Assembly: GCA_023134955.1 (NCBI GenBank) | Contig: JAGLUC010000345.1 | Location: forward strand, 1 to 38,688 | Length of the DNA: 38,688 bases | Direction: 5' to 3' | Source of the DNA: Methylococcales bacterium | Lineage (GTDB): Bacteria > Pseudomonadota > Gammaproteobacteria > Methylococcales > Methylomonadaceae | Shown: piece after piece, positions 1-37,047 of the stretch | How the letters are laid out: every line of letters begins with the position of its first letter | How positions within the stretch are numbered: position 1 is the stretch's first letter | The notes under the pieces: generated by a model | The model's input: only the letters and a program-made list of their open reading frames with translations | What the model was told of the DNA's origin: nothing | Database searches by the model: none | Made by a program: the position numbers and the translations under genes

Positions 1-10
1 TAATTTTAAT

Positions 11-15000: not shown

Positions 15001-18000
15001 TTCAACCATTGTTGAATTTGATGCGAACAGTACGGTAGATGTTACTGATGTTGATGGTGAGTTTATCGCCAAGGCATTTAATGAAATAAAAGCTGTTGAT
15101 CAAGTCAGTTTGTTCACTGCAGGAGCAATTTCGGGTGCGGGTGCTTTTACCTCGTTGATTACTACCCAGAATTTGGCTCAGATTCTAATCGACGATAATG
15201 CCACAGTAACGAGCAAAGGTGATATTGAGTTAGAAGCCCAAGGTGCGACCGATGTTTATTTGCAGTCTTACTCCGAAACATATGGTGCTGCGACAGTGGC
15301 ATTGGGTGATGCGATTATAGAAATCACACCTGAGAACCGAATCGATATTAATAATGGCGCCTACCTTTTAGCAGAAGGCGACCTTTTTATCAGTGCAGGA
15401 ACCGATAAAGATTTAAGAATTGCGGATCATGACTTAGAAGCACGGGTTGATAATTTCGCGGGTTCAATTATTCCCATAGATGACCTTGAAACAAGGGCGC
15501 TTTATATTGTCGACAATATTATCTACGTTCATGCTGGCGGTGCTATCGAAAGTTACCAAAATATTGATTTGAATGCTGATGAATTTGGCTTGGCTAGCGT
15601 TATTGGTGAAGCCAAAGGCACTAATTGGGCTTCAGCACTGGGTGATGCTATTGATAGTGCCTTGGGTGGAAACAATGAGACTTTTGGCCCCGGAGAAGGT
15701 CTAGCGGATGCTCATGGTCAGGTGATTAATGACGGTACTATCCGCACCGGTGCAAAACGGGTTAAGACGCTGGTTCTGGATACCATAGATGCAGTCACTG
15801 GCGAGGTATCTAGCTCGACACCAACGGATTTAACGTTCTCATCTTCTCTGCAAACGGTTGAATCATCCAAGCAGAAATCGCTTAATGATGCATTTCAAAA
15901 CTTGGCACGTTACAAAGTGATTGACCCAGCTACGGGTGATTGGGTTAACCCTGATTTGGTTGATTTTTATGAAGCCGAAATTGTTAGACTACAGCAGGAA
16001 ATGCTTGATGAGGGTCTGGCAAGAGAGCTTTCAGATGGAAGTGGTGGTACTGAAATTGTTGCCATCGCCCAAAGTGCAATCACGGTAACTATTGATCCTG
16101 CAACCGCTCAGGCGGGACGTGTTCGAGTGCTCACTGACCAGTTATCAGGAACCGGTCTTTTTGATTCGCCTAAAGATGCACTCATTTCAATCATTAATGA
16201 TACACAAGCTTTTTTGATTATTAATGGCCTTGAAATTCCAGAAGTAAATGGCGGTGTTGTCTTTAATGGAATTGATGTCACTGATTCGGTATCAAGTACC
16301 GCTGCAAATAATTTGATTTTGGTTGAAAATGCGGTGGCTGTTTCAAAAGATAACAACCATCAAGTTGCTTCTGTGCCATCAGTCAATTTAGTTACACCCT
16401 CTTTAAATTTCAGCGCAGAATCTTTGTCGGCAGCTGGTGCTTTACCAGAAATTATTATTCAGAATACTTACGATGTAAGAGATGCGGGAGCTTCATTTCC
16501 ACCCTGGCCCGATATTACTATTGATGGACCGGTATTAAATCTGCGTGGCAATCTGTCTATCTTGAATAATCCTGTATCGGGCGCTAAAGGCGATGTGGTT
16601 ATTAATGCCGAGGTTAGTGCTTTAACTCAGAATATTGTCGCAGGCGGCAGTGTTTTTATTGAACTCATTGGTGACAATACCGCCTTTAATGTTAAAGGTG
16701 CACCGTATTCAAATTGGTTGGGTGGCAATTTGACAGGTAATGGTACTCGAGATGCCGCAATTGGTGAAAATGATGTAGAGGTTTTTCCGGGTGTTACTAT
16801 TGATGGCGACCATGATATCGCTGACTTTTTAGATGTTACACCTACGACACCTTCCTTGCAGGGTGACCGGATTACTATTAAAGCTGAATACATTAATGTT
16901 AATGGCATTATCCAAAGTGGTAAGGCAGATTTTAGTTTAACGTTGGATGCGGCAGTTAAAGCACAGATTGATGATATTCGTAGTGGCACACGTACGGAGA
17001 CTACATTAGAGACGAATAATAACGACTTCTTGGTTGAATATACTGATGGTCAAGTGGTCATTAGCGAGCTTAGACCTAGCGGTGGCTTTGTTGATTTAAC
17101 GGGACATGTGATGAACACCCGCAATGGCGAAATCATTGTTTACGGTGGTTTTCCAGACATTCATATTGTCAATAATATGGTTTTTGCTGAAGGAGAAATC
17201 CCTGAAATTGTTATTAATCGTATCGATGCTTCCGAACGAGGCGATGGTACATTAATCATCAAAGACAAAGCCAAAGGTGAATCAGACGGTTTTATTGAGA
17301 AATTAGTATGGAATGAAACGACTCAAGACTTTGATGTTGTTTTGGAGGCTGCAACTGTACCGTATACTACCATCTACCAAGTACAAAATGATGGCACTGT
17401 GCAAGTGATTGAGACCGGTAAAAGTACAGTTAATTCCAGTGCGAATAGCTTTGTTTATAACCCTGAGACCGGCTATCGTCACGGCTGGTCAGTCGGACAA
17501 TCATCAATTACCGAAACGATCAGAGAATACACCTTAAGTGACTGGTTGGGTATTGATGCCTTTGTACCAGATAAACATGAGCCCGATAAAGTAGATACCA
17601 GAATATTAAGTACTGCGCTGATAGAGGACTCTGATTATTTCTTTAAAGATACTTCATTAAACAATGTTGCTTACACCTTTAACTCAGTAAGTGTTGATGG
17701 TTTTTCTCAGGAAGAACGTACGGGTTATAACGAGAGAAGCACATGGTATGGCACCAACCACTACTGGTATCAGTACACGAAACTTGAAGGTGATACGTCT
17801 ACTTTTACTCATACCATAGAAGCAGACCGCCCCATAGGGGTTAGCTTTATTGGTCATGAGCAAGGCTCGGTTTTTATTGATGGTGGTAATTCAAATATTA
17901 TTGTCAATGGCGCGATACAAAACGAAACCGGTGATACCACTATTATTACCAGTGGCACAATCACCAGTACAGCCTCTTCAGATGCGAGTGCATCGGGATC

Positions 18001-21000
18001 TGTCGGTGGACGAATTATCGACTTGACTGGTAAACAAGTCGGAACAGATTTGAGTGCGTTACGTGTCGACTTATCGGATACAGTCAGCGATCAACGGCTA
18101 GATGTTACCAGTGCCGGCGCAGTTTTTGTTAAAGAAATTGATGGTGATTTATGGGTCGGTGAAATCGTTGCTGGCGCAGGGGAAGAGGCTACCTTAACAG
18201 CGCACAATTCAATTTTACGGGCTTCTTCAGGTACATCATTAATTACCGGTGGTGAAATTAATCTAACTGCTGACAGTGGCGATATTGGTAACGCGACCTC
18301 GCTGCTTTCTATTAATACAGGAGCCAGAGAGGGCGACAACCTTTCTGCTTATGCCACGGGTGGTATTCATATTTCAGAAACTGCAGGAGACTTGCGCCTG
18401 TTTGAAATTTTAGCAGGAGGCGATGTAACCGTTGAGGTTTTGGGCGGTAATTTGCTTGATGGCAATACAACTGAGATTAACGATGACCGAGCCATTGAAG
18501 AGTTACGTAACTCTGTGTGGGCTGATTTGCAGTTGACTGATTATGCCGATGGCGTGTTGACAGGAGCGGCATCTGCCAAAATTCAGGAAACTAAAGATTC
18601 TTTATCTAATGCTAAAACAAGCGAATATAAGACTTATTGGTCATGGCGGATGGTGCAAAGTGATCACCTTGTATTCCGTGTAGGCTCAGGCGTTTATGAT
18701 GGTTTTGCATTATTACAAATGAGTACTGATGAGCTGGCGTTTTATGATGATTTCTATCGCCAGCAAGGTATTGATGATGGGTTGTCGGGTGTGGCTCTTG
18801 ATGATTTTGTTGATGCAGCAGTATTAACTCTGCTAACGACACGAACTGAGCAATACCGTACTCTGGATGCTACCTATGGTAGTGATGGTGGCAGCGATGG
18901 AGATGTGGATACTTTTGATGAAGAGTATCTGGTCGCATTGACTCAAGCAGAAATTGAAGCGATTGAGGCCTCTATTAAAATTTGGACAGAAGAAGAGCTT
19001 ATTAATGGCATTGGTATTGGTATTCTTAAACCTGTAACGGATACTGATATTGTTATTGAAGACCCTAATATAGTCGGCTCAGCCATTACCTTAAATGTTT
19101 CTGGCTCTATTGGGCGTACAGGCGGACAGGAACTCATTCCGATTACAGCAGGTGGCAATTTAACCGAAGAGCAACGAATTACTCTAGGTGCTGCAGAACG
19201 CGACGATGTTTTTTATCTAGTCACAGATCGTGAACAGGCCACCGTTAATTTTGATGCTGGAAATAATACTATTACGCGTACATCGGGAACCTGGGGTTCT
19301 GAGTTTGTAGCAGGAATGGTCATTCAGGTCGAAGGCACGACTGCTAATGCAACTGAAGAAGGGCCTTTCTATACCATTCTTAGTGTAGTGGGAGGTACGA
19401 TTACAGTCGATGGTAGCCGTACAGCTCTGACCAGCACCGAGTCTTTAGAAAGTGTGCATGTTTCTGGTATTGCACTTGATCCTCGCGGTGTTACTGTCGA
19501 TGTTACAGCCAGTGTTTCTGGTGGCAACACAATTATCCGTAGTAGTGGAGAAGATTTTTCAGGTTTGTTTGCAGGTATGAAAATATTACTTAGCGGCGAT
19601 ACGGTAAATGGTAATGATGCTGATTCATTGTATGAGATTCAATCAGTCTCAGGTAATGTGATTACGTTGCTAGGAACACCTGGATTGACCAATGAAACAA
19701 GTATTTCATTGGTTGTAGACCAATACGTAGAGTTGGTTGCTGTACAAGTACAATTACGTGAAGATCTTGATATTGTAGCCAGTGGTGTTGTTACACTCAA
19801 TGCGGGTAACGAGACATTTATTGGTACGGAATCAAATATTACTCTGAATGAAGTGAATGTTGCTGGGAACTTACGGATTAAAGCTAATGGCTCAATTCTT
19901 AATGGCTTAGATGGTAGTGCGACTAATATTATTAGTGATAATTTACTATTAGAGGCTGGTTCTGGTTCTATCGGTGCGGTTGGTTCAGATAACCGTATAT
20001 ATCTTGATCTAGGTGCTACATCCACTGTCATTGCAAGAGCTTTGGGTGATATCGTATTAACAGAGCGAACCGGTGATATGAATGTTGCGACACTGTTCTC
20101 TAAATCGGGTGATGTCGATTTGGTGTCGAATGGCTCTATTCTGGATGCCATTGCCGAAGATTTTGTAAATATAGAAGCCAATGATATTCGCTTTGAAGCT
20201 GGTGCAAGTATTGGTGCTGATGGTAACGCATTGGATATTGAAGCACGGGGTGATGGTTCTGCGCTTGGCAAAGGTCTACTGACGGCAACAGCAGTAGGCG
20301 ATATATTTATTACTGAAGCCTTTGGCGATATGAATATACGCAATATTCTTTCGACTGCGGGCGATGTTACCCTAACTTCTGCGCTTAGTATTTTTGATGC
20401 AATGGATTTGGTTGATCCTGCTAATCCTAACTTGGGGGATGACTCATTATCAGTCAGCCTGCCAAAAGCAGATGTATTGGGAGATAATATTACCTTAGTT
20501 GCACGATTGGGCTTTATTGGCATAGACGGAAATGAACTCGATATTGATAGTCGTCGAGGTGGTAACGGTTTATTAAGTTCACAAAGTGCACAAAACACCT
20601 ACATTATTGAAACAAGTGGTGATGTCTTTATTGATCAAGTAGGCACTGATGCAATGACTGCATTTATTACTGCAACTGTGGGCGGCATTTATAATGGTGC
20701 GGCACTGGGCGTGTCAAATGTAACGGGTGGTCGAGCATTCCTATCAGCTAATACCAATATAGGTACATCTGCTAAACGTCTCTTTACTCAGATTGGTACT
20801 ATTCAATCTATTTCCATAACAGGCTCAACTTTTGTTACTAATGATGGCGCATTAGATATTAATCAAATTAGGGGTGCTGTAGGGCAGATCGCTGGTGGCG
20901 ATATAAATACTATGGCTTCAAGTCCAGTGACTGTCTTAGCAGATATGATTGCAGCAGGAAATATTACAGTTGATGCCAATGAAAGTGCGGCAAATGACTA

Positions 21001-24000
21001 TGATGTTATTACCGTGAATTCAGGCGTTACCGTCGATGCAGGCGGCAGTATTTTCTTTAATGCTGGTGACCACATTGTTGTACAGAGTGGTGCGACAATT
21101 GAGGCGAATAATGATATTACATTTAATACCGATGTAGCTAATCTGGATGCTGGCGGTGGTGATATTACCATTACAGGATTAGTTGATGCCATTGCTGGCA
21201 CAGTTACCTTGGCATCAAACAGTGATAACGATAGCTTTGTAGTCGATGGTGCTATTAAGGCTGGTGATCAGGTGCTGGTAACAATGGGCAATGGTGCGGA
21301 TACTTTTATAGTTACAGGTAGCATATTGTCAAATGCGCTACTTTCAGTAAATACCGGTGCTGGGAATGATGTTTTTACAGTTATCTCGGGTGGCTTACTG
21401 CAATCTAATAGTGGCAATGTCGAAATTAATACTGAAGCCGGGGAAGATACCCTGCTCGTTGCCGAAACAGGAACGCTAGCAGGAACGAGTATTGCTATTG
21501 CCAGTGGCGATAGTAATGACCAAATTACTATCGAAGGTATGCTAGATGCTGGAACCAGCACTATATTGATTGATGCGGGAGCGGGTGAGGATGTTGTTTT
21601 ATTAGATACGCCTATTTTGATTGGTCAAACCACTGTATTCGGTGGTGCTGACGATGATTTGATTACAGTAAACAGATTACCTACACAGGGTGCAACGGAT
21701 ACCTTAATGCTAGATGGTGGTGAAGGAAATGATGATCATATTGTCAACCTGACTGACCCAGCAACAGTTGCAGGGCTAGGTACTGAATATAGAATAGATG
21801 TCTTTGATACAGGGATAGGCGACACCGATACGCTTACCGTTAATGGCACAGCATTAGCAGATAACATTCTGATGCGTGCGAGTGAAAAACAGAAAGTAGA
21901 TGGTGGAGTAGCTTTTGTTGCTGCGTTACATAACGATGATCCAACCATTGCCGTTGAGCGGATTAATTACGACAAGGGGCTCGAAGAACTAATCGTTGAA
22001 ACTGGAGATGGTGATGATAATGTTAGTCTTGATGATAACTGGGTCACTACAACGGTTCGGGGTGGTGCAGGTCAGGATAATTTTCAGATTGGACAAATTT
22101 TTAAAACAGCACGTGATGCTGCAAATGCCAATATTGCATTAGAAGATGAGTTTGAGACAGTTTTATCAACGCGTGGGCATTTGAGTAACGGTGTTAGTTT
22201 TGAGACAACAATTGAAGGCGGTGATAATGAGGATACTTTCGTGGTATTCCGAAACTCTGCCAGACTGAATTTATTTGGTGATGACGGTGATGACTTGTTT
22301 GTTATTCGCTCATTTGCAGAAGAAGGTTCTAGTGATAGCGACATTGACCTTGGAGAAGGTGCAGATACCGTTGAATATGTTTCTAATGCGGCTGTAAATG
22401 TTATCGGTGGAAATGGTAATGATACTTTGCAGTTTATCGGTACTGAGTTTGGTGATGACTTTCTGATTACCAACAATAGTATCAGAGGTGCTGGGCGAAC
22501 TATTACTTACCAAGAAATAGAGAATCTTGAGATTGATGGTGCAGAAGGCGATGATAATTTCTTTGTTTTCTCAACCAATGAAAACGTTATAACCAAATTG
22601 TTTGGCGGCCTTGGTAATGACAGCTTCAGTATCGGAGGTGACAGTGGATCAGTTGTTGTCGCTGATAATGCGATAGAGGCGGAACAAGAAGGCCCACATA
22701 ATGTCGCGGGAATATTGGGTGCTTTAGAAATTTATGGTTTTTCTGGTAATGGTACAGCTGGTGGCTTAGGCGACCCAGTGATGCTACCTGGCGAAACTAA
22801 TGTTCTACCATCAGATGGTACAGTGCTTGGCTACCAAGTGGGTGATAACACTGACGATACCATGACTGTTTTAACAAGTGCATTGCAAACGGTAATTAGC
22901 AATGATGAGGACCTAGATGATTTACAAAGTTTAATAGGGCAAACGCTGGAAATCAGTAGTGGTGCTGGAATATCCCGTTTCTGGGCGATTACAGCAGTTG
23001 TTGATAATAATGGCACTAATACAACACTGAGTTTGCAAAATCCAACACTACCCGCAGAAGAGTGGGAAGACCCTACCATAGGTAGTGAATATGCCATTAC
23101 CCATTTATCAGCAAATTTCTTTGTTGATGAATCCTTGGCTTTAGATAAAGTGACTGTTTTTAATGATGGCAGCAGCTTGAATTCGAGTGGACTACTGACA
23201 GCAAATACACTCACTGGACTTGATATGGTCGCTGTGGGCATTAGCTATGGTGATTTTGAAGCCTTTGAGTTGCTATTAGGCACAGGCAATGATGATTTTA
23301 CGGTGGATTCTACTGCAGATGGTGTGATTACGGCGATACATGGTGGTGCGGGTGATGATCTGATTACCATTAATAGTCGAGGTGGTTTAGATAGTCGTGG
23401 ACTGGATGGTTCATTGGTCGTTTTTGGCGATACCACTCAAGATGGTAGCCGATATATAGACAGTAACACTGTGCTTTTACCTGGTTTTGCATACGGTTTT
23501 GATACGGTGGGAAACGACACTATTGATGCTTCATCTGCTGTCAAAATGGTTTCAATCTATGGCGGCGGCGGTAACGATATTATTATCGGTAGTCAGGCTG
23601 GAGATCATCTTGCAGGTGGTTCTGGTGATGATGTAATTACTGGCTTGGATGGTTTAGATCATATCTATGGTGATTCAGGTATTAATCTTGAGCTTGATAC
23701 GCGAGTACTCACGATAGTGACAGTGGACACGAGTTCGGAAGATGCCAGAGATGTATTATTAGCAGGTAGCGACATAATAGATGCTGGCGAGGGTGATGAT
23801 ATTATTTTTGGTGACCATGGGATTATCGACCAAACTGTGAATACAGTTAGAATCCTTAGCACATCAAATATAGAGCGGATTAGCACCACTGAAGAGACAG
23901 TTGGTTTAGATGATATTATTATCGGTGGTTTGGGTAATGATCGGATTCTAGCGGGTAATGCCGAAGATCAAGTTACTGATTTAATGGATAATAATATTAT

Positions 24001-27000
24001 CTTGGGCGATCATGGTTATATTGACTATGTATCAATAGATGGTGATCTGAGTGATATTGATGTAATAGAAAGTACTTCTACCACCGTAGGCGGCGGCAGT
24101 GATGGCATCCGCAGTGGTTTTGGCAACGACATTATTCTAGGCGGACGCTTTGGCGACCAAATCAACAGCCTGGGTGGTGACAACCTCATCCTTGGTGATA
24201 GCGGTAGTATTACCGCCGCCAATACTGGTACAGCACAACTGGCAGGACAATCCATCACTCTAGGGTTAATTACCAGCACCGAATTTGATGACGGCGGTGC
24301 CGACACCATCACCACCGGTGCAGGTCAAGACATCGTATTGGGCGGAGATGAAGGCGATATTATAGCTACAGGTGATGGCAGTGATATTGTACACGGTGAT
24401 AACGCGCGTCTGGATTACACCAGTGGTAGTTCAATTACACTTGATTTAATTGAAACGCTTGCTAATGATATAGGCGGTGAGGACATCATTCGAGGTGAAG
24501 GTGCCGATGATATATTAATTGGTGGTACTTTAGCTGACCGCATTGATGGTGGTAGCGAAGAAGATCTGATTTTTGGCGATAATGTTAATCTGGATCGTAG
24601 CGCTACTTATGGTAATTTTACTAATCTACGATTCCAGACATTGACGGGCTCCGAAATTTACGGCAGTGGTTTAAATGTGAATGGTTTTGTTGAAGGAGAA
24701 GTGTTGATTAGTAATACTGCACAACTTGATCCACAGGGCATGTCTGCATTTTGGTCTGATTTCCAGATTACATTGCTTGACCATGATGATGCTAGTAATA
24801 CAAACAAGTTCGGTGACGATTATATTGCCGGTGGCGCTAATGATGACCAAATATTTGGTCAGTTGGGTAATGATGTAATTCAGGGTGATGGCACTATTGA
24901 CCTGAATGTATCAGCGGCTCGGTTAGCAGCAGATGGAACGCTTAGTCTGAGTGCCTCGGTGGAAGATTTTGATCATTTTGATGAGTCAAACTTGGTCTTC
25001 TCTGTTGAAGGTAATGATGGTGATGACTATATCGAAGGTAATGGCGGTGATGATGTTATTTTTGGTAACCTTGGTCAAGATGACATTATAGGTGGCAGCT
25101 CGACGTTATTTAGCCTTGATAGCCAAGGTCACCGTCCAGATGGAGCCGATTTGCTTTTTGGTGGTGCAGGTGTTGATGTTATTCGAAATAATTTGGGTGA
25201 TATTAGCCATGCTGTCGATTCCGACATGATTCTGGGTGATAATGGCAATATCTATCGACTAGTCACTGGCGGCACGAGTAATGCTTATCTTGGTTTTACT
25301 TATGATAACTATGGTGGAGAAAAAATCATTGTGCGTGCGGCAGAACTTATTGACTACACAGCAGGTGAAGCTCACCTGGATGTCAATGGACTGAGTTCGG
25401 ATATCGGTGCTGCAGATGAGATTCATGGTGAGTCGGGCGATGATTTTATTTATGGCATGGTCGGTAATGATGTTTTATTCGGTGACGGCCAGGATGATGA
25501 CCTAATCGGTGGCTATGGCCATGACTGGATATCAGGTGGTACTGGCGATGATGGCATACTTGGTGATGATGGTTTGATTTATACCAGTAGAAATGGTGTA
25601 ACAGGAGAGTCTTTATATGGTATAGGCGCTGTTGTAGAACAAACAATCAGTACACCAGGAGATTTTCAGCAAGCTACTATTAATGTTTTAGGCGAGCTTA
25701 AAAAGACTGTTAATTTAACACCTTTTAATGTTGACCTAAATACAGCACTTCAAGACCACTTATATGATGCTCAGTTTGCTGATGACATAATCTATGGCGG
25801 CTGGGGAAATGATTTTTTACATGGTGGTTCTGGTGATGACGCTATTTCCGGAGCAGAAGCATTAAATAGTTTCTACTCTGTACCGAGTAATTTAGGTGAT
25901 GAACTAGGCTATAACAGTTTAATAGTGGGGGAATTTGTCGCTTATGACGAATTTAACCCATTACTTAAAATTAATAACTTCTTCCTTAATTTTAATGCTG
26001 GTGAAGGTGAGGTAGTGCTTGGGGAAGCAGTCCTAACTGATGGTAATGACCGGATATTCGGTGACCTGGGTAACGACTGGCTAGTCGGGGGAACAGGAAG
26101 AGATCATCTATATGGAGGTTATGGTGATGACCTACTCAATGCCGATGATAATCTTGACAGCAATGGCGGTCTCAATGATGTTCCAGATGGCCCTCAAGCC
26201 TCTTACGAGGATTTGGCATTTGGTGGCGCTGGTCGCGATATATTAATAGCCAATACAGGTGGCGACCGCTTGATAGATTGGGCAGGGGAATTTAACAGCT
26301 TTGTTGTACCTTTTGCACCCTTTGGTTTAGGGACAGTCAGCCGGGCTTTGCAACCACAAATTGCAGACTACCTCTATGATTTATCAGCAAGTGATGGTGC
26401 GGATTCGACTCGTGCTGCTGATACTGGTACAAATATTGCCAGAAATGGGGAGCCAGATGGTGAGCTAGGTCTCGTTACACAGCAAGATACTGATTGGCAA
26501 GATCAGACTGGAGCACCTGCTGATCCACAACCTGGTAATGTGGCAGGCGGTGCGCGTGACGTATTGCGAAGTGCTACTTCAAATCTATTGGCACAAGAAG
26601 CGGCCATAATAATATCTGCAGAAGAGTTAAGTCAGATACAATTAACAGAGATTGTTAATACGGCTAAATCATCTTGGCAAGAATCAAGATTATTAAATCA
26701 AGCATCACTTTCCAAATTAGATAAAGTGGAGATAAGAATTGCTGATCTAAATGGTTTGAAACTAGGTCATACAGCGGGTAATAGCATCTATATAGATATT
26801 AATGCAGCGGGTCACGGCTGGTTTATAGATACCACGCCAGATATTAACGAGGAATACCAACGCAATGGCGAAGAATATAGCCTGACAGCACTAAATAATA
26901 CTGCGGCTAGTGATAATATGGATTTACTCACAGTAGTTAAACATGAGTTAGGACATATTTTGGGCTATGCACATGATAGTAATGGTGGTTTAATGGAAGA

Positions 27001-27418
27001 TACCTTACAGGTCGGTGAGCGAAAACTAATAGTACCTGAGGCGCTAAACTTCACAAGTAATGTAAAATCGGATAGTGCTACAACGCTTTCAAAAATAGTG
27101 GAAAAAGCAACATTTAGTGCTAAAAAATTACTTGGCATTAGCACACAACAAGGAAATATTGATTTTCAATATTTTGATGAGCTATTTGGTGTCTTTAATA
27201 ATCAGGAGGTCACTATAGAACCTGAGGATAGCAAAGAAGACTTTTTGATCTTTAGTAATGATAAAAACCAGGATGGTAAAGAAAACCATGCAACCCAGTA
27301 TCAACTAAGAAAAGGGCATGAATCTAATGGCTCAGATCAACGAGCAACGGAAAATAAAGCTGAAGGAAGAGAAACGGAACTCACTGTTTTAATTGACTGG
27401 AGTGACGGAGAAGACTAG
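11..27418 (+). CDS. Giant secreted-type repeat protein (at least 9135 aa, probably 5'-partial): beta-solenoid-like repeats, RTX-type GGxGxD Ca-binding block, C-terminal HExxHxxGxxH zincin-like module
   Basis: A 27.4 kb stop-free frame in AT-rich DNA cannot arise by chance. Codons 2-10 (aat ttt aat) are also open, and the first residues ([17 protein letters not shown]) already sit inside a repeat that recurs near aa 7500 ([18 protein letters not shown]), so the TTG at 11 is probably not the true start. There are dozens of GGxGxD nonapeptide-like motifs between roughly 21590 and 26290. [11 protein letters not shown] is at 26942..26974. The stop codon TAG is at 27416..27418. Confidence 0.9.
   Translation: [9135 protein letters not shown]
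2630..2940 (+). repeat. Copy A of a ~310 bp near-identical dispersed direct repeat inside the giant ORF
   Basis: It aligns base-for-base with 6269..6579 at a constant offset of 3639 bp (1213 codons). I count about 16 mismatches, 7 of them in a patch at 2701..2720. A perfect 114 bp run covers 2747..2860. Confidence 0.85.
6269..6579 (+). repeat. Copy B of the ~310 bp near-identical dispersed direct repeat inside the giant ORF
   Basis: See copy A. Immediately outside the tract, identity falls to the level of the other paralogous modules; for example 2590..2629 versus 6229..6268 differ heavily. Confidence 0.85.
11051..11476 (+). repeat. In-frame tandem duplication, 2 x 213 bp (71 codons), inside the giant ORF
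   Basis: Unit 1 (11051..11263) and unit 2 (11264..11476) encode [35 protein letters not shown]....YDM..QDFS..DLWEQIN twice. The first ~180 bp of each unit are roughly 85-90% identical, with perfect runs such as ttaactaaaaatgtaacgacagtagaagtgct. Confidence 0.85.
21590..26290 (+). repeat. RTX-type (hemolysin-type calcium-binding, GGxGxD) nonapeptide repeat-coding block of the giant ORF, interrupted by non-RTX inserts
   Basis: Examples are [40 protein letters not shown] (about 23561..23680), [49 protein letters not shown] (about 25429..25575), and [20 protein letters not shown] (ending about 26280). Looser G.G.D.(F/L).(V/I) units run from about 21000. Boundaries are approximate. Confidence 0.8.
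26942..26974 (+). other. Zincin metalloprotease signature [11 protein letters not shown] (HExxHxxGxxH) in the C-terminal module of the giant protein
   Basis: The in-frame codons cat gag tta gga cat att ttg ggc tat gca cat were read directly. The next residue is D, and a Met (GGLMED) follows 7 residues after the third His, a candidate Met-turn. Confidence 0.7.
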
Positions 27419-27497: not shown

Positions 27498-28283
27498 ATG
27501 AGCACACAACTATTAATCTACGAACGCGCAGAACCCATCAGTAAACAGAAACATAGCAACTGGTCAGTAAAAACAGGTGGTAGTTACGATTTTACAAAAA
27601 ATATTAATTCAGCGCCATTAACTGCAGTAGAATTTCCTAATGCATCTACGGAATACAGTATTGTTTTTGCTGGCAATGATGATGCTGTTATGCCAGCAGT
27701 TATATTAGGCTTACGAGACCAGGAAAACCTGTATTTATCAGAAGATGGAAAATGGAACAGTAAATATATCCCTGCTTTCATTCGTCGGTATCCATTTGTA
27801 TTCTCCAGTAGTAATGAAGCTAAACAATTTACCCTCTGCATAGATGAAGAGTTTTTGGGCTGCAACCAAGACGGTATAGGTGAACGACTGTTTGATACCG
27901 AGGGAGAACAGACCCAATACTTAAAAACAGTTTTAAATTTTTCCAGTGAATACCAAGGTCAGTTCAACCGAACTCAATTATTCTGTAAAAAATTAAAGGA
28001 ACTGGATTTGTTAGAGCCTATGCAAGCACAGTTCACCCTGCCAACAGGGGAAAAAATGAACTTAGGCGGGTTTCAGGCGGTCAGTCGTGAGCGCTTAAAA
28101 AAACTAAGCAATGAACAGTTAGGAGAACTAGCTAAAACGGATGAGCTAGAATTGATTTATCTGCACTTGCAATCGATGAGAAATTTCAATGCTATGGTGG
28201 CTCGGGTTCCTGAAAGTGATGCGAGCTCAAATGTTGCAAAAGACTCTAAGAAAGAAAAACTATCTAAAAAAGATATGCATTAA
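27498..28283 (+). CDS. SapC-family protein
   Basis: The 261 aa ORF has an N-terminal half (LLIYERAEPISKQKH..., APLTAVEFPNASTEYSIVF, YIPAFIRRYPFVF) that matches my recollection of the conserved SapC-family core (YxPAxxRRYPF). It starts 79 bp after the giant ORF on the same strand, with no convincing terminator between them. Confidence 0.75.
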   Translation: MSTQLLIYERAEPISKQKHSNWSVKTGGSYDFTKNINSAPLTAVEFPNASTEYSIVFAGNDDAVMPAVILGLRDQENLYLSEDGKWNSKYIPAFIRRYPFVFSSSNEAKQFTLCIDEEFLGCNQDGIGERLFDTEGEQTQYLKTVLNFSSEYQGQFNRTQLFCKKLKELDLLEPMQAQFTLPTGEKMNLGGFQAVSRERLKKLSNEQLGELAKTDELELIYLHLQSMRNFNAMVARVPESDASSNVAKDSKKEKLSKKDMH

Positions 28284-32966: not shown

Positions 32967-32992
32967 ATTAAAACGATAGTTATGGATTTTTA

Positions 32993-34981
32993 ATGGCAGC
33001 CCATTCAAATTTTAAGCCTGGTATTGTTGAAGGATTATATCCTGAGCGGTCTGTGCTAAAAAAAGCTTATCTTGACCAGAAATTGGCTAAAATAGAGGGT
33101 TTTTTCACTCGCTTATTTAAGTATAACCATCGTTCACTTAGCTTTATAGTCCAGTTAGTGAATCAATATTCTGATGAGCTTGAGTTATTGCAAGATCACG
33201 CATTAGACGAACGAATTGAGCATTTAAAATCGAATTTAATCCTGCATGGGCTAGAGGATTTATTGATTATCGAAGCATTTGCCCTGATTAAAGAGGTGGC
33301 TGGAAGAAAGCTGGGAATGCGGCATTATGATGTGCAGCTTATAGGCGGCTGGATTCTTATTAAAGGAATGATCGCTGAAATGGAGACGGGTGAAGGTAAA
33401 ACATTAGTAGCAACGTTGGCGGCTTGTACTGCAGCAATCTCGGGTATTCCTGTCCATGTCATTACGGTGAATGATTATTTGGTTAAACGTGATGCCACTT
33501 TAATGGAGCCAGTTTATAAGGCTTTTGGCTTGAGTGTTGGAATTATTTCTGAAGATATGGATTTAGCTACTCGTCAAATAGCTTATGCTTGCGATATAAC
33601 TTATTGTAGTAATAAACAAGTTACTTTTGATTACCTTAAAGATAAGTTGGTGTTGGGGAGAAAAGGTAGTAACTTTCATTTACAACTCGAAAAGCTTTAT
33701 GCAAAGAAAGCAGCGAAACAGGCGCAGTTACACTTAAGAGGCTTATGTTTTGCAATTGTGGATGAAGCCGATAGTGTTTTTATAGATGAATCAAGAACAC
33801 CATTGATTCTTTCTCGAGAAACTAATTCTCTTGACGAGTTGTATGTTTATCAGCAGGCACTTGAAATTGCAGGGCAATTGAAAGAAGCAAGTGATTTTAT
33901 AATAGATCAGCGAAATCAACATATACAATTAACAGGATCTGGTATTAATCGCATTAAGCAAATGGTTGAGTCACTATCAGGTATTTGGTCGGCGGAAAGG
34001 CGCAGTCGTGAATTAATTGTTCAAGCATTGTCGGCACTATATTTGTTTTTGAAGGATGTTAATTACCTTGTTAAAGATGGAAAAGTATTAATTATTGATG
34101 AATTTACTGGACGTGTGATGGCTGATCGTTCGTGGGAGCGAGGCTTGCATCAGCTAATAGAAACTAAAGAAGGCTGTGAAATGAGTAGGCAAAAAGAAAC
34201 ACTTTGTCGAATTAGCTATCAATCTTTTTTTCAACGCTATCTACATCTTGCGGGGATGACGGGAACAGGAAAAGAAGTGGCGAGAGAATTATTCTCTGTT
34301 TATCGGCAGCCTGTTATTAAGGTGCCTACCAATAAGCAAGGCAAACGGAAACAATTCTGTGCGCGTTATTTCACGACTGCATCACAAAAATGGACGGCTA
34401 TAGTTGAACGTATTGTAGAAATTCATCAACAAGGGCGACCTATTTTAATAGGTAGCCGTTCGGTTGAAGCATCAGAGCATTTAGGGCAATTGTTGACTAA
34501 GAAAAGATTGCCTCATCAATTATTAAATGCTCGACAGGATGCTGACGAAGCAGAAATCATTAAAATGGCGGGTAGTCTAGGGGCGATTACTGTGGCAACG
34601 AATATGGCAGGAAGAGGGACAGATATTATTTTAGCCCCTAGTGTTAATGAAATTGGCGGCTTGCATGTAATTGTCAGTGAATGTCATGAGTCTAGGCGTA
34701 TAGATAGACAGTTATTTGGTCGATGTGGTCGGCAAGGCAATGAGGGCAGTTATGAAATGTTTTTATCATTTGATGATGAAATAGTAACCAAATATACACC
34801 TCTTATCGCGTATGAATTGGCTAAAAAAATGTGTGGATATGGTTATCAAAAAATAGCCGCAGCAGTTTTTTACTTGGCGCAAACACGGGCAGAAAAATAC
34901 CATGCAGCCATCCGTAGAGATTTGCTAAAAATGGATGAGAACTTACAAAACCTGTTAGCATTTTCTGGAAAACCTGAATAG
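32993..34981 (+). CDS. SecA-like ATPase, motor-only paralog (NBD1-PPXD-NBD2; lacks helical wing, two-helix finger and C-terminal tail)
   Basis: MRHYDVQLIGG...EMETGEGKTLVATL (Walker A, 33389..33403) and VHVITVNDYLVKRDA are near-identical in pattern to E. coli SecA. The DEAD box is at 33761..33772. The PPXD-like segment is LVKDGKVLIIDEFTGRVMADRSWERGLHQLIETKEG, followed by MTGTGKE, TNMAGRGTDI and GRCGRQG. The protein ends at 662 aa, within the stretch that aligns to the first long scaffold helix of SecA (E. coli SecA is 901 aa). Confidence 0.9.
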   Translation: MAAHSNFKPGIVEGLYPERSVLKKAYLDQKLAKIEGFFTRLFKYNHRSLSFIVQLVNQYSDELELLQDHALDERIEHLKSNLILHGLEDLLIIEAFALIKEVAGRKLGMRHYDVQLIGGWILIKGMIAEMETGEGKTLVATLAACTAAISGIPVHVITVNDYLVKRDATLMEPVYKAFGLSVGIISEDMDLATRQIAYACDITYCSNKQVTFDYLKDKLVLGRKGSNFHLQLEKLYAKKAAKQAQLHLRGLCFAIVDEADSVFIDESRTPLILSRETNSLDELYVYQQALEIAGQLKEASDFIIDQRNQHIQLTGSGINRIKQMVESLSGIWSAERRSRELIVQALSALYLFLKDVNYLVKDGKVLIIDEFTGRVMADRSWERGLHQLIETKEGCEMSRQKETLCRISYQSFFQRYLHLAGMTGTGKEVARELFSVYRQPVIKVPTNKQGKRKQFCARYFTTASQKWTAIVERIVEIHQQGRPILIGSRSVEASEHLGQLLTKKRLPHQLLNARQDADEAEIIKMAGSLGAITVATNMAGRGTDIILAPSVNEIGGLHVIVSECHESRRIDRQLFGRCGRQGNEGSYEMFLSFDDEIVTKYTPLIAYELAKKMCGYGYQKIAAAVFYLAQTRAEKYHAAIRRDLLKMDENLQNLLAFSGKPE

Positions 34982-34990
34982 GAAATTAGG

Positions 34991-35845
34991 ATGTGTCGAA
35001 TAATAATAAAAAAATCTGTTATCAGCCTATTGCTGGTGCTTTCTAATACAGTATTTGCTGGCAATGGGAAGGTCTTAGATTGTGTGCTGGAGCCGTCAAT
35101 GGTTGTTGAGCTGAGCAGTCAAGTTCGTGGTGTAATTGAGAATATTTATGTTGAACGTACTGATGTTGTTAAAAATGGGCAGCTAGTTGCTAATTTAATG
35201 TCGGGAGTGGAGAAGGTCAGTGTTCAATTGGCTATGGATAGATCGAAAATGGTTGTAGATATAAAATCTAGAAAAGCTGAACAAAAATTTAGAAAGCATA
35301 CCTTCGAGCAGGTAAAAGAGCTTTACAGGAAAAAGCTTGCCTCACAGCGTGAATATGAAGACGCTAAAACCTCAAGTATTGTTGCAGACATTGAACTGGA
35401 AAAAGCTATAGAACTAAAGTACCTGGCAGGTATGGAGTTGAAACGTACTCAAGAGATACTTAAACTTCGTTCTATGCACAGCATGATTGATGGCGTAGTA
35501 GTAGACGTGATGAAGTCACCAGGTGAATTTGTTGAGGAACAACCAGTCATGAAAATCGCTCAAATTGATCCCCTTTTTGTTGAAGTAATCGTACCTGAAA
35601 CATTAATGGGCAGGGTTAAGGTGGGAAAACAATTAAAGGTTAATATTGAAATACCAATAGCAGCTAGCCATTTGGCAACAGTGAGTGCAGTCGATCAAAT
35701 TATTGATGCTACAAGTGGTACCTTTGGGGTACGGCTGATACTACCTAATCCAGATAATAAAATTCATGCGGGTCAACGTTGCCAAGTTGTTTTGGTTGAT
35801 GAACCCCTGAAACTCAACTTAAATAAATATAAAAATAAAAGGTAA
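34991..35845 (+). CDS. HlyD/RND-type periplasmic adaptor (MFP) with cleavable Sec signal peptide
   Basis: The N-terminus is MCRIIIKKSVISLLLVLSNTVFA|GN, with a positive n-region, a hydrophobic core and an AxA-like site but no lipobox. The rest has lipoyl-like halves (VKNGQLVANL ... SMIDGVVVDV), a coiled-coil hairpin, and a barrel segment PLFVEVIVPE...VKVGKQLKV. The start lies 9 bp after the SecA-like stop, with AGGAAATTAGG just upstream of the ATG. Confidence 0.8.
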   Translation: MCRIIIKKSVISLLLVLSNTVFAGNGKVLDCVLEPSMVVELSSQVRGVIENIYVERTDVVKNGQLVANLMSGVEKVSVQLAMDRSKMVVDIKSRKAEQKFRKHTFEQVKELYRKKLASQREYEDAKTSSIVADIELEKAIELKYLAGMELKRTQEILKLRSMHSMIDGVVVDVMKSPGEFVEEQPVMKIAQIDPLFVEVIVPETLMGRVKVGKQLKVNIEIPIAASHLATVSAVDQIIDATSGTFGVRLILPNPDNKIHAGQRCQVVLVDEPLKLNLNKYKNKR

Positions 35846-36185: not shown

Positions 36186-36196
36186 AGGAATTAATA

Positions 36197-36961: not shown

Positions 36962-36990
36962 AAGCTAGAATTGTTAAATTAGAAGCCAAT

Positions 36991-37030: not shown

Positions 37031-37047
37031 ATGAATTGAAGTAAGTC

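Follow-up and report, generated by a model that had tools for sequence, protein, structure and literature searches.

What does a SecA protein do when it has lost most of the parts that couple it to the SecY channel? The question is raised by a 38,688-nucleotide stretch of DNA from a Methylococcales bacterium (contig JAGLUC010000345.1; here called the window), in which a gene for a short SecA-like protein lies among genes for periplasmic adaptor proteins and beside the 3' part of a gene for a giant protein of secreted type (Table 1). SecA is among the most studied of bacterial motors and is not known to work with channels other than those of the SecY type. The canonical protein works with SecYEG and is essential. 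An earlier note on the window proposed that the short SecA keeps the motor and preprotein-binding domains, lacks everything that engages SecY, and probably docks on something other than SecYEG, two neighboring adaptor fusions being the first candidates. Here we ask how far this holds, and what machine such a motor could serve.

Table 1. Features of the window discussed in the text
Feature	Positions	Strand	Basis
Giant secreted-type protein gene, 3' part, at least 9135 codons; presumed substrate	1..27418	+	ORF list
RTX calcium-binding nonapeptide repeats, best-scoring stretch in the giant	25412..25505	+	Pfam HemolysinCabind 6.5e-14, 3 stretches
Metzincin-like domain, motif HELGHILGYAH	26618..27013	+	Pfam Peptidase_M10 7.4e-05, below cut-off
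SapC-family protein, accessory	27498..28283	+	Pfam SapC 1.1e-73
PilZ-GAF-TM-periplasmic adaptor (MFP) fusion, 717 aa	28650..30803	+	Pfam PilZ 1.3e-09, GAF 3.4e-11, HlyD_3 1.4e-20
RRE/PqqD-like + M50 (site-2-protease-type) + periplasmic adaptor fusion, 715 aa	30819..32966	+	Pfam, NCBIfam, AlphaFold2
Short SecA, 662 aa: NBD1-PPXD-NBD2 + scaffold-helix stub	32993..34981	+	Pfam, NCBIfam, PDB, AlphaFold2, alignment
N-terminal extension, aa 1-26, motif (R/K)PGIxxGxYP(E/Q)(R/K), family-specific	32993..33070	+	Family alignments
18-residue NBD1 insertion, aa 222-239, family-specific	33656..33709	+	Alignment
Preprotein cross-linking domain (PPXD), aa 284-390	33842..34162	+	Pfam SecA_PP_bind 6.9e-30
Single long helix, aa 619-657, first part of SecA scaffold helix	34847..34963	+	AlphaFold2, alignment
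C-terminal tail LAFSGKPE + stop codon; candidate docking peptide	34955..34981	+	Conservation
Small periplasmic adaptor, 284 aa, N-terminal signal or anchor	34991..35845	+	Pfam HlyD_D23 7.2e-18

Domain content of the short SecA

Every motif quoted in the earlier note is present in the translation. GMRHYDVQLIGG and the Walker A motif (GEGKT, residues 133-137) are followed by VDEAD at 256-260, a PPXD-like segment bounded by VKDGKVLIIDEFTGR and WERGLHQLIETKEG, and GRCGRQG at 576-582; MTGT, TNMAGRGTDI and AQTRAEKYHAAIRRDLLKMDENLQ are also found, and the protein ends in LAFSGKPE. Three Pfam families match far over their gathering scores: SecA_DEAD (3.9e-99, 332 bits), SecA_PP_bind (104 bits) and P-loop_SecA (6.1e-52, 177 bits). 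At E <= 0.001 the PDB search gave 25 matches, each of them a SecA or SecA2 chain (in one case within a SecA fusion construct); E-values of the 24 full matches run from 1e-132 to 6e-92. Identity to the SecA or SecA2 proteins of Bacillus subtilis and Clostridioides difficile is about 38-40%. An AlphaFold2 model (pLDDT 83.8, pTM 0.83) is closest, by Foldseek, to the substrate-engaged SecA-SecY complexes 5EUL and 6ITC (TM 0.81-0.82), and 5K9T is among the other matches. With model and Foldseek in agreement on the predicted fold, membership in the SecA superfamily is confirmed.

The motor looks intact as judged from its residues: among 79 sequences, Walker A, the DEAD box and motifs V and VI are invariant or nearly so, and several residues of the PPXD stem are invariant. 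The claim that motor and preprotein-binding domains are kept is borne out by the Pfam matches and the model alike.

What, then, is missing? In an alignment with 71 canonical SecAs, the last residue of the short SecA falls at residue 616 of the 838-residue Fictibacillus protein. Only the first 40 or so residues of the scaffold helix are kept. The 222 missing residues cover the remainder of that helix and the wing domain, the two-helix finger (IRA1), which inserts into SecY and contains the canonical marker LRAYGQTDP, and the zinc tail marked by CPCGSGKKYKQCH. The LRAYGQTDP segment occurs in no member of the short family in the alignment, and the short SecA itself, which ends in LAFSGKPE, has no zinc- and SecB-binding tail of the CPCGSGKKYKQCH type. 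A Pfam search found no SecA_SW (wing/scaffold) match in it, and the NCBIfam secA models align only over about positions 1-606 of 789. Beyond NBD2 the model shows one helix, 619-657, and then a disordered tail.

Alignment and structure prediction thus give the same domain content, NBD1-PPXD-NBD2 plus a scaffold stub. The loss of finger, wing and C-terminal tail is as the earlier note described, with most of the scaffold gone too, and the end of the ORF does align to the start of the scaffold helix. The stop, placed by the note about 70 residues after NBD2, lies 80 residues past motif VI, so the estimate was approximately right. Its phrase 'lacking everything that engages SecY' is too strong. 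In SecA-SecYEG structures, contacts with SecY loops are made by the PPXD and by portions of the NBDs as well. The short SecA retains these surfaces, and this counts against its independence from SecYEG.

Origin of the truncation

At about three quarters of normal SecA length, the protein could be taken for the product of a frameshifted or decaying secA. Nine canonical SecA C-terminal regions were compared by tblastn with the whole window in all frames, and nothing significant was found besides the ORF's own scaffold stub. A complete HlyD-type adaptor gene begins 9 nt past the stop codon. More than 100 clusters of homologues are 653-671 residues long, with identities of 52-79% and conserved catalytic residues; the modal length among the best 120 clusters is 661-668, and canonical SecAs in the same scan have 826-1233 residues. 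Among 47 complete loci, 46 have their stop codon at the equivalent site, after a tail of the form LAF(S/T/A)Gxx(E/D). The constant stop, the conserved terminal motif, the more than 100 conserved clusters and the absence of SecA C-terminal coding potential from every frame lead us to dismiss an artefact or pseudogene as having practically no chance of being right. The ORF does not run on into HWD/HSD-coding sequence, the event that the earlier note had named as fatal to its claim. The truncation is real, conserved across the family and ancient.

A family of short SecAs

When compared with the 71 canonical proteins, 18 short SecAs (from Gamma- and Betaproteobacteria, Planctomycetota and Tectomicrobia) group together in a single, separate clade. 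Short and canonical SecAs are 35-47% identical, compared with a median of 59% among the canonical ones. The window's protein scores 607.8 and 607.4 bits against the canonical equivalogs TIGR00963 and NF009538, below their cut-offs of 800 and 814. Against the SecA2 models TIGR03714, TIGR04221, TIGR04397 and NF012136 it scores 500, 422, 546 and 398 bits, and none of the cut-offs (930, 725, 1085 and 1100) is reached.

The family also has features of its own. In the N-terminal extension Y16 is invariant and G10, G14 and P17 are invariant or nearly so; the alignment shows this motif in no canonical SecA. The NBD1 insertion, found in 70% or more of short SecAs and in no more than 20% of canonical SecAs, is poorly modelled (pLDDT <50 at 224-240). 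In the C-terminal tail, disordered as the model has it, A656, F657, G659 and E662 are invariant or nearly so. The short SecA is a member of a widespread and distinct family of SecAs, putative paralogs whose truncation is natural.

The gene cluster described below recurs in Methylococcus, Motiliproteus, Achromobacter piechaudii, Tepidisphaerales and on eight alphaproteobacterial plasmids. Its cultured, tractable carriers are Ensifer (E. adhaerens), Mesorhizobium (M. ciceri), Rhizobium, A. piechaudii, Methylosinus (sp. C49) and Methylococcus. The short SecA is borne on repABC-type plasmids of cultured rhizobia, which argues that it is accessory; together with the separate clade, this location also lends indirect support to its being a paralog. 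Annotation pipelines name it 'SecA', 'DEAD/DEAH box helicase' or even 'prepilin peptidase'.

The gene cluster

Which proteins accompany the short SecA? Loci for the synteny analysis were anchored on the M50 fusion, so that SecA played no part in their selection. The order is giant protein, GAF-adaptor fusion, PqqD-like/M50-adaptor fusion, short SecA, small adaptor and sometimes TolC. The short SecA lies directly downstream of the M50 fusion in 64 of 69 M50-anchored loci, and a GAF-MFP homologue directly upstream of the M50 fusion in 67 of 71. In 41 of 61 loci the stop of the M50 fusion and the start of the short SecA overlap by 8 nt. A few loci (L102 and L157) have the M50 fusion without an adjoining short SecA. 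This is a conserved gene cluster with translational coupling. The two proteins singled out as docking partners in the earlier note have proved to be near-obligate neighbors, and a partner other than SecYEG is therefore the most economical reading. Gene neighborhood suggests that the short SecA may dock on the M50 or the GAF fusion.

The M50 fusion, often labelled 'hypothetical' by pipelines, has its HELGH at residues 210-214 (31446-31460). Its Pfam M50 match (1.8e-05, 24.6 bits) is just under the gathering score of 27.2, and its NCBIfam match to the daptide HExxH protease (4.6e-43) is also under the cut-off; the nearest NCBIfam models are leader peptidases of RiPPs (daptide, YydH/LiaK). Among 68 homologues, 66 match M50 at E <= 0.01 and 23 match PqqD. 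The zinc-site motifs HExxH and NxxPxxxxDG vary little or not at all in two family alignments: in that of 68 sequences, H210, E211, H214, N304, N306, P307 and D312 are invariant and G313 nearly so. The motifs of the protease site are intact. The AlphaFold2 model (pLDDT 85.3) has an N-terminal domain of three strands and three helices, then about nine membrane helices, and at its C-terminus an adaptor; its Foldseek matches include MexA, AcrA and MacA. The N-terminal domain is predicted to have an RRE-like fold.

The second fusion places PilZ at residues 11-104, GAF at 280-413, one transmembrane segment at about 445-476 and the adaptor at 484-680. Its PilZ match (38.8 bits) exceeds the Pfam cut-off of 22.5, and residues 13-45 contain RNEYR (RxxxR) and DKSEGG (DxSxxG), the motifs of a putative c-di-GMP receptor. 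The small adaptor, which follows the short SecA or precedes the GAF-MFP fusion in most long loci, scores 110 bits against NCBIfam RND_mfp (cut-off 94.9) and has a hydrophobic segment at residues 4-23. HlyD/RND_mfp adaptor domains thus occur in three cluster proteins of the window. The slot occupied here by SapC holds DUF3467 or DUF2299 in other loci; SapC itself recurs in L086, L087, L091 and L156 and on Pseudosulfitobacter and Alisedimentitalea plasmids.

The window contains no TolC gene; the clusters of L003, L097, L099, L106 and Methylosinus pMSC49a include a TolC/OEP gene. A scan for Walker A plus LSGGQ over 91 cluster loci (926 kb) found no HlyB-like ABC exporter, only an importer ATPase and one 282-residue ORF, and no ABC exporter is annotated beside the plasmid clusters. 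An exporter of the HlyB type could be encoded elsewhere in the genome. Nor are there secY2, asp or glycosyltransferase genes beside the window's short SecA, the neighbors of which are SapC, the three adaptors and the giant RTX protein.

The giant protein and its leader

The 5' end of the giant gene lies outside the window: the ORF is listed from position 11, with no in-frame stop before it. Over its C-terminal 1500 residues the giant shares 41-54% identity with giant ORFs that precede the cluster in L001 and L105, and the RTX repeats and matrixin-like domain lie close to the C-terminus. Giant gene products adjoining the cluster, annotated or called, have 7,631 to 18,821 residues. Their extreme C-termini are not conserved across loci, save for a weak IDWS motif.

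The N-termini are another matter. In some related loci (that of the window's own giant lies outside the window) they carry LEPR-XLL, by which NCBI names giant proteins: a basic stretch, then (F/L)ExLEPRxLLSAD, without the long hydrophobic core of Sec-type signal peptides. LEPR-XLL is present on all eight plasmid giants of cultured Alphaproteobacteria with a visible N-terminus, as identified by NCBIfam NF012209, a model of an N-terminal 24-residue LEPRxLL motif (34 and 31 bits; cut-off 17), by PGAP names or by a motif scan. LEPR-XLL ORFs start beside the cluster in seven metagenome loci. Altogether, a giant ORF or the start of a LEPR-XLL ORF is visible in at least about 28 of 88 distinct related loci and on 8 of 8 plasmids. 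We found no paper that assigns the motif an export system. The LEPRxLL proteins of the Chlorochromatium epibiont, of 20,647 and 36,806 residues, are described as having no known transport signals (2026 preprint).

Could the leader belong to something smaller? In RiPP leader peptidases with an RRE (the daptide HExxH protease, YydH/LiaK) a PqqD/RRE-like domain likewise precedes an M50-type protease, so the cluster might export or mature a small leader-bearing peptide, the giant gene being merely a frequent neighbor. We regard this as very improbable. Unlike those peptidases, the M50 fusion scores under the family cut-off (148 versus 300 bits), has a fused adaptor and lies beside giants rather than short precursors. 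No small precursor ORF or modifying enzyme is conserved in the cluster; giants with a conserved N-terminal leader are its constant feature, at the frequencies given above.

A proposed export route

We favor the view that giant LEPR-XLL proteins have a type-I-like exporter of their own and that the short SecA, working without SecYEG, is its ATP-driven polypeptide motor; we judge this view rather likely to be correct. Gene neighborhood is what suggests the physical interactions, the direction of transport, leader cleavage and SecYEG independence. The giant would present its N-terminal leader, the basic stretch and (F/L)ExLEPRxLLSAD, to the M50-adaptor fusion, which would recognize it through its cytoplasmic PqqD/RRE-like domain. 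The short SecA, held at the membrane by its N-terminal motif, NBD1 insertion and/or LAFSGxxE tail, would clamp the chain between PPXD and NBD2 and feed it N-to-C into an inner-membrane conduit made of the membrane domains of the adaptor fusions. Through the three adaptor proteins the chain would reach a TolC-type outer-membrane channel, and the M50 active site would remove the leader. In the window's clade, the PilZ domain added to the GAF-adaptor fusion may bring the process under c-di-GMP control. As a stimulator of the short-SecA ATPase, the N-terminal leader looks a better candidate than the giant's C-terminal fragment. We found no paper describing such a route for LEPR-XLL giants.

Several points count against this scheme besides the retained SecY-contacting surfaces: the window has neither a TolC gene nor the N-terminus of its giant, and a few loci have the M50 fusion without an adjoining short SecA. 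No M50 protease is known to act as a protein-conducting channel, as the proposed conduit would require. And C-terminal RTX repeats are the hallmark of classical type I substrates, which leave through an ABC transporter with the C-terminus leading; those of the giant tell against SecA-powered N-to-C export.

The short SecA might instead act as SecA2 proteins do. By itself, or paired in a heterodimer with the housekeeping SecA, it would target the giant to SecYEG, and the adaptor and TolC parts would then carry the giant from the periplasm over the outer membrane. Its top PDB sequence matches are to C. difficile SecA2, and PPXD and NBDs are kept. Mycobacterial SecA2, too, is missing much of the wing domain, yet depends on SecYEG and SecA1, and pumps of the MacAB-TolC type can accept periplasmic substrates. 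Still, we think this unlikely. The short SecA has no two-helix finger, no wing domain and little of the scaffold, and E. coli SecA cut after NBD2 (N68) has a deregulated ATPase and does not translocate. All SecA2 model scores fall far under their cut-offs, no SecY2 or Asp genes are nearby in the window, the leaders lack a Sec-type hydrophobic core, and the 8-nt overlap points to the M50 fusion as the stoichiometric partner.

A third possibility, which we rate as more doubtful, is that the short SecA is no translocation motor but a cytoplasmic holdase, unfoldase or targeting factor that prevents the nascent giant from folding and delivers its leader to the M50 fusion. Proton-motive force, calcium-driven RTX folding outside the cell or a distant ABC transporter would then drive export. 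Canonical SecA has been reported to have chaperone activity, a SecA-type push has no recognizable channel partner here, and the giant has C-terminal RTX repeats. The variation among possible chaperones (SapC, DUF3467, DUF2299) between loci also suggests a chaperoning step. However, the polypeptide clamp and all ATPase motifs are conserved more strongly than a holdase needs, the 926 kb of cluster loci contain no ABC exporter, and coupling to the gene of a membrane protein is tight.

Comparison with known systems

The short SecA shares the NBD1-PPXD-NBD2 architecture and catalytic motifs of housekeeping SecA. It departs from it in ending at the equivalent of residue 616 of 838, in adding the N-terminal motif, the 18-residue NBD1 insertion and the LAFSGxxE tail, in lying beside adaptor fusions and not near secY, and in forming a separate clade. 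Like the accessory SecA2 proteins of Mycobacterium, Clostridioides, Listeria and Streptococcus (aSec), it would be a second, substrate-dedicated copy. SecA2 proteins, however, retain the scaffold and two-helix finger and work with SecYEG or SecY2; the short SecA comes from didermic Proteobacteria and Planctomycetota and is accompanied by adaptors and, in some loci, by TolC. Almost the same in domain content, NBD1-PPXD-NBD2, is the E. coli N68 fragment, an engineered C-terminal truncation (PDB 5K9T). N68 is a laboratory construct, whereas the short-SecA truncation is natural, conserved and equipped with new terminal motifs.

SecA modules without scaffold and wing have been associated with giants before: giant proteins of Omnitrophota and Actinobacteria embed SecA_DEAD/PPXD modules, for which a role in exporting the very giant that contains them is proposed (West-Roberts et al., bioRxiv 10.1101/2023.11.21.568195). 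Those modules are fused inside the giant, beside transmembrane segments of their own and with neighbors resembling type II/IV secretion genes; the short SecA is a free-standing protein of 662 residues whose gene is coupled to those of the M50- and GAF-adaptor fusions.

The cluster shares with type I systems (HlyBD-TolC, LapBCE) periplasmic adaptors, in some loci a TolC-type channel, and a very large presumed substrate with RTX repeats encoded next door. It differs in having a SecA-like ATPase with no ABC transporter at the locus, three different adaptors, and a recognizable signal that is N-terminal (LEPR-XLL) rather than C-terminal. Peptidase-containing ABC exporters likewise carry a leader-recognizing protease in an inner-membrane component, as we predict for the M50 fusion, but theirs is a C39 cysteine protease and the cluster's an M50 metalloprotease. 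The abstract of a 2021 review of tripartite systems lists ABC, RND and MFS proteins as the only energizers, and in its available text SecA appears only alongside SecYEG/SecDF.

Do the short SecA, the RRE-M50-adaptor, the GAF-adaptor, the small adaptor and a TolC-type channel together make up an unrecognized type of secretion system, a one-step, SecA-driven, envelope-spanning exporter of LEPR-XLL proteins? We put the chances at even. In such a system the N-terminal leader would be recognized and removed, and chains of 8,000 to >18,000 residues would be threaded N-to-C, possibly co-translationally.

Significance

A large conserved family that has shed its SecY-coupling parts would show that the SecA motor has been reused by a different machine. 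The short-SecA cluster is a candidate route for the passage of giant proteins (8,000 to >30,000 residues) over two membranes, and a concrete candidate export system for the orphan LEPR-XLL motif. If an N-terminal signal and an N-to-C motor are indeed at work, export need not await full translation of a gene of about 30 kb. And if the cluster does represent a new secretion type, it would explain how the 20,647- and 36,806-residue LEPRxLL proteins of the Chlorochromatium epibiont leave the cell.

Results

A SecA motor that ends in the scaffold helix

The ORF between the M50-adaptor fusion and small adaptor genes (see table) begins with ATG and encodes 662 residues. An earlier note, made by reading the sequence, had called the product a SecA paralogue that keeps the motor and preprotein-binding domains but lacks everything that engages SecY. 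All of the motifs quoted there are present in the translation. Pfam recognizes SecA_DEAD (residues 43-433, 3.9e-99), with the preprotein cross-linking domain (PPXD) inserted at residues 284-390 (6.9e-30), and the SecA P-loop/NBD2 domain (6.1e-52); the wing/scaffold domain has no Pfam match in the protein. When aligned by MAFFT with 71 canonical SecAs, residue 662 falls on residue 616 of the 838-residue Fictibacillus SecA. The 222 residues beyond this point are missing: the rest of the scaffold helix, the wing domain, the two-helix finger (...LRAYGQTDP...) and the CPCGSGKKYKQCH zinc tail.

The protein belongs to the SecA superfamily. At E <= 0.001 the PDB sequence search gives 25 matches, every one a SecA or SecA2 chain (one is a SecA fusion construct); the 24 full matches have E-values from 1e-132 to 6e-92. 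It is neither a canonical SecA equivalog nor a member of any SecA2 family, because the defining features of both were looked for and are absent. The protein covers roughly the first 606 of 789 positions of the NCBIfam secA equivalogs and scores 608 bits, below both cut-offs (800 and 814), and all four SecA2 models score it far under theirs.

AlphaFold2, given 79 homologues, returned a confident model (pLDDT 83.8, pTM 0.83) that ends in a single long helix, residues 619-657, with a disordered last decapeptide. In Foldseek searches only SecA structures rise above the helicase background. The nearest conformers are the substrate-engaged SecA-SecY complexes 5EUL and 6ITC (TM 0.81-0.82, rmsd about 3.1 A), and SecA-N68 (5K9T), a truncation engineered from E. 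coli SecA, is among the matches too. The model has a closed clamp, as in those complexes; open cytosolic SecA forms resemble it less (TM about 0.66-0.70). The finger, the wing and most of the scaffold are thus gone, as the earlier note said, but 'everything that engages SecY' was an overstatement, for the PPXD and NBD surfaces are retained.

The truncation is conserved

Might the ORF simply have lost its 3' end through a frameshift, as the earlier note had allowed? The truncation is genuine. We compared nine canonical SecA C-terminal regions with the window by tblastn in all frames; nothing was significant except the ORF's own scaffold stub, ruling out a frameshift or hidden C-terminal domains. 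A complete HlyD-type adaptor gene begins 9 nt past the stop codon. Of 47 related loci whose gene is complete, 46 have the stop exactly at the position of residue 662. An artefact or a pseudogene is refuted by this constancy together with the negative tblastn result, and we give that explanation practically no credence. Among the 120 best homologue clusters (identity 52-79%) the commonest length is 661-668 residues, and the canonical SecAs from the same genome scan have 826-1233, running 190-540 residues beyond the end of the alignment. We conclude that these proteins almost certainly form a conserved family of truncated SecA paralogues, hereafter short SecA.

Three features are found in the family and not in canonical SecAs: a 26-residue N-terminal extension with (R/K)PGIxxGxYP(E/Q)(R/K), an 18-residue insertion in NBD1 (residues 222-239), and a conserved C-terminal tail, LLKxDxxLxxxLAF(S/T)Gxx(E/D). 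Conservation in 79 sequences is complete or almost so for Walker A, the DEAD box and motifs V and VI, and several PPXD-stem residues are invariant.

Two homologues differ. That of locus L122 turns into canonical-looking scaffold near its end and continues without the LAFSG tail; it may be an assembly chimera with a housekeeping secA. A 648-residue protein from a Planctomycetaceae MAG (L076) has the same three Pfam domains without wing or scaffold, branches outside the family and is followed by unrelated genes (DAG kinase, cytidylate kinase, PilM). Possibly SecA was truncated here a second time, independently.

Lineage and distribution

Short SecAs from Gamma- and Betaproteobacteria, Planctomycetota (Tepidisphaerales) and Tectomicrobia, 18 in all, group as one clade in a neighbour-joining tree of 616 shared columns; the midpoint root parts this clade from the 71 canonical SecAs of many phyla. 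Short and canonical SecAs share 35-47% identity, against a median of 59% among canonical SecAs. The genome-collection scan with the short-SecA alignment undersamples the species distribution: because its patterns are generic SecA motifs, 71 of its 80 loci are canonical, and it provided the outgroup and a few named carriers. Cultured Alphaproteobacteria carry the gene on large plasmids or chromids (Mesorhizobium ciceri, Methylosinus sp. C49, Rhizobium spp., Sinorhizobium chiapasense, Ensifer adhaerens, Pseudosulfitobacter, Pontibrevibacter and Alisedimentitalea), which is consistent with an accessory paralogue. In the window, the cluster sits in core chromosome-like sequence, since ordinary housekeeping genes lie directly downstream: an inositol-monophosphatase/HisN-like gene, then rpe (ribulose-phosphate 3-epimerase) on the opposite strand.

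Present annotation hides the system. RefSeq names short SecA 'prepilin peptidase' in Methylosinus and Pseudosulfitobacter and 'DEAD/DEAH box helicase' in Mesorhizobium and Pontibrevibacter; the M50 fusion appears as 'hypothetical protein', 'PqqD family protein', 'site-2 protease family protein' or 'peptidase M50'.

Linkage to the M50 fusion and the GAF-adaptor

Linkage was tested independently of SecA in a metagenome scan anchored on the M50-adaptor fusion. Short SecA is the immediate downstream gene in 64 of the 69 loci with at least 300 nt downstream, and the GAF-adaptor the immediate upstream gene in 67 of the 71 with at least 300 nt upstream. The M50-fusion stop overlaps the short-SecA start by 8 nt in 41 of 61 loci, a signature of translational coupling. 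The core cluster also occurs in Methylococcus sp. EFPC2, Motiliproteus, Achromobacter piechaudii NBRC 102461, a betaproteobacterial MAG, a Tepidisphaerales MAG and a metagenome locus with an 18,821-residue giant protein; a TolC/OEP gene lies within it in several loci and on Methylosinus pMSC49a. In L102 an ORF that opens with a LEPR-XLL leader stands right after the M50 fusion, and the 923 nt available contain no short SecA; in L157 the small adaptor comes directly after the M50 fusion.

Features of the window and of comparison loci (L numbers; other genomes, metagenomes and plasmids)
Locus	Feature	Coordinates	Strand	Distance to next gene
Window	giant RTX protein, at least 9135 aa, 5' end outside window	to 27418	+	79 nt
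Window	metzincin region of giant protein	26618-27418
Window	SapC (slot 3' of giant gene)	27498-28283	+	366 nt
Window	PilZ-GAF-TM-adaptor	28650-30803	+	15 nt
Window	PilZ domain	28680-28961
Window	M50-adaptor fusion	30819-32966	+	26 nt
Window	short SecA	32993-34981	+	9 nt
Window	small adaptor	34991-35845	+	351 nt, then unrelated housekeeping genes
Window	HisN-like gene, rpe	36197-37716
L116	slot 3' of giant gene	2632-3884
L103	slot 3' of giant gene	4348-6310
L165 (Mesorhizobium)	slot 3' of giant gene	9599-9904
L165 (Mesorhizobium)	short SecA	14992-16953
L166 (Methylosinus)	short SecA	15034-16950
L169 (Pseudosulfitobacter)	short SecA	12514-14538
L170 (Pontibrevibacter)	short SecA	10785-12770
L076	short SecA	293-2239
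L122	short-SecA homologue	2602-4691
L102	M50 fusion, LEPR-XLL ORF	3836-6903
L157	M50 fusion, small adaptor	2203-5314

The slot between the giant and adaptor genes is filled according to lineage: by SapC in the window's clade and some Rhodobacterales plasmids, by DUF3467 in at least 19 distinct loci (20 with the duplicate pair L001/L002), and by DUF2299 in three. SapC and DUF3467 had no sequence matches in the PDB. The three may be interchangeable substrate chaperones.

A scan of 27300-36300 for promoters and terminators does not set operon boundaries: promoter-like sites do not exceed the shuffled level (23 against 25.6 expected), and terminator-like sites are in excess (12 against 6.0 expected, sd 2.5) but lie mostly within coding regions.

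The membrane partners

Homologues of the M50 fusion, itself 715 residues long, form a large family that hardly varies in length. Clustered at 50%, it has 4316 representatives with E <= 1e-30, of which the top 150 are mostly about 700-740 residues long and match over their full length. The zinc-site motifs HExxH and NxxPxxxxDG are invariant or nearly so in the family alignments, and among 68 homologues Pfam finds M50 in 66, HlyD domains in 39-41 and PqqD in 23. In the AlphaFold2 model of the fusion (pLDDT 85.3), three strands and three helices make up an RRE/PqqD-type domain at the N-terminus. The membrane part has about nine helices and a re-entrant hairpin such as site-2 proteases typically have, and the C-terminal adaptor carries a short coiled-coil hairpin. 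The adaptor part superposes on MexA, AcrA and MacA. As the top 50 Foldseek matches are all adaptor proteins, the protease assignment rests on HMM matches and motifs.

The nearest NCBIfam models are RiPP leader peptidases, namely the daptide HExxH protease (4.6e-43) and YydH/LiaK (6e-09), both under cut-off. This resemblance raises the idea of a RiPP-type small-peptide system, which we regard as very improbable, for precursor and modifying genes are not conserved in the cluster.

The window's GAF-adaptor has one transmembrane segment and an additional N-terminal PilZ domain with intact RxxxR (RNEYR) and DxSxxG (DKSEGG) motifs. Most homologues lack PilZ because they start about 110 residues later, at about residue 100-150 of the window protein; only the closest relatives (L086, L087 and L091), which align from residue 1, have it. 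PilZ thus appears, from these alignments, to be a recent addition.

The giant proteins and their leader

Unlike in the window, whole giant genes can be read on plasmids. In Mesorhizobium (10,518 aa) and Methylosinus (8,847 aa) the N-terminus of the giant matches NCBIfam NF012209, 'LEPR-XLL domain', with 34 and 31 bits against a cut-off of 17, and reads ...FEALEPRLLLSAD... and ...FDTLEPRVLLNAD..., respectively, in both cases preceded by a basic stretch. PGAP names the neighbours in Pseudosulfitobacter (about 12,900 aa) and Pontibrevibacter (about 10,600 aa) 'LEPR-XLL domain-containing protein', and the motif lies 37-69 residues into the ORF in the Ensifer, Sinorhizobium, Rhizobium WSM1274 and Alisedimentitalea giants. 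All eight plasmid giants therefore have it. An ORF opening with the motif also adjoins the cluster in seven metagenome loci. For the window's own giant protein we infer the leader, since the 5' end of the gene lies outside the window. Its C-terminal part has RTX repeats followed by a metzincin zinc motif, HELGHILGYAH. The protein ends in an acidic tail, ...LIDWSDGED, and (I/V)DW(S/N)-like motifs occur near the C-terminus of giant ORFs in five loci (L086, L087, L091, L100 and L121). No conserved C-terminal signal was found across loci; the weak IDWS-like motif of some is not taken as evidence. We are confident that short SecA is part of a LEPR-XLL giant-protein cluster.

Could short SecA be a SecA2-like factor that still delivers to SecYEG, leaving the outer-membrane step to the adaptors and TolC? 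The retained PPXD and NBD surfaces would suit such a role, yet the two-helix finger and scaffold are missing, the leader of the giant proteins is non-hydrophobic, and short SecA is coupled to the M50 fusion. We consider it unlikely, and lean slightly towards a route independent of SecYEG.

Discussion

The SecA-type ATPase motifs and the polypeptide clamp of short SecA are intact, and the parts that insert into SecY or regulate at SecY are missing. The gene is almost invariably coupled to those of two membrane-anchored adaptor fusions and a third adaptor, and the M50 domain, leader-peptidase-like and RRE-bearing, has intact active-site motifs. A role for short SecA in export of the LEPR-XLL giant protein is probable. 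As a cytoplasmic holdase or targeting factor it would leave movement of the substrate to another driver, a reading we find rather improbable.

The earlier note's interpretation was right in direction, and its docking of the ATPase on the neighbouring proteins is a proposal that we extend as follows. The RRE-like domain of the M50 fusion would bind the LEPR-XLL leader. Short SecA would dock on the cytoplasmic face of the adaptor fusions through its family-specific termini or insert and push the chain, N to C, into a conduit formed by the fusions' membrane domains. The adaptors would link to TolC, and the M50 site would cut off the leader. In the window's clade, c-di-GMP might gate the exporter through PilZ. 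We favour this overall picture of an exporter powered by short SecA, though with reserve. An N-terminal signal and an N-to-C motor would let export start before a gene of 27-110 kb is fully translated. With a classical C-terminal type I signal this is impossible.

Type I and peptidase-containing exporters are nearest in layout. Type I exporters are defined by their ABC transporter, however, and no ABC exporter of the HlyB type came up when 926 kb of sequence from 91 cluster loci was searched for the motifs Walker A and LSGGQ together; nor does annotation show one near the plasmid clusters or 5' of their giant genes. What is new is a SecA-type motor in a tripartite-exporter context; whether the cluster amounts to a new type of secretion system is close to an even call. 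The abstract of a 2021 review on tripartite systems names ABC, RND and MFS energisers and no others, and in the text searched SecA comes up only together with SecYEG/SecDF. In the open-access literature searched we found no description of the cluster.

The closest literature consists of two preprints. Giant proteins of Omnitrophota and Actinobacteria hold embedded SecA DEAD/PPXD modules without scaffold and wing (bioRxiv 10.1101/2023.11.21.568195), the nearest published parallel. The other, from 2026, reports LEPRxLL N-termini on proteins of 36,806 and 20,647 residues in the Chlorochromatium epibiont; these giants have SapC and TolC neighbours (Chlorobium chlorochromatii Cag_662-665) and no known transport signal, and the organism has one horizontally acquired secA, Cag_1676 (10.64898/2026.03.19.712371).

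The finding is larger than the earlier note saw: an apparatus that is widespread and unannotated, and that goes with LEPR-XLL giants, has short SecA as its signature gene. Should Cag_1676 prove to be a short SecA next to M50-adaptor genes, the export route sought for the Chlorochromatium giants would be this system.
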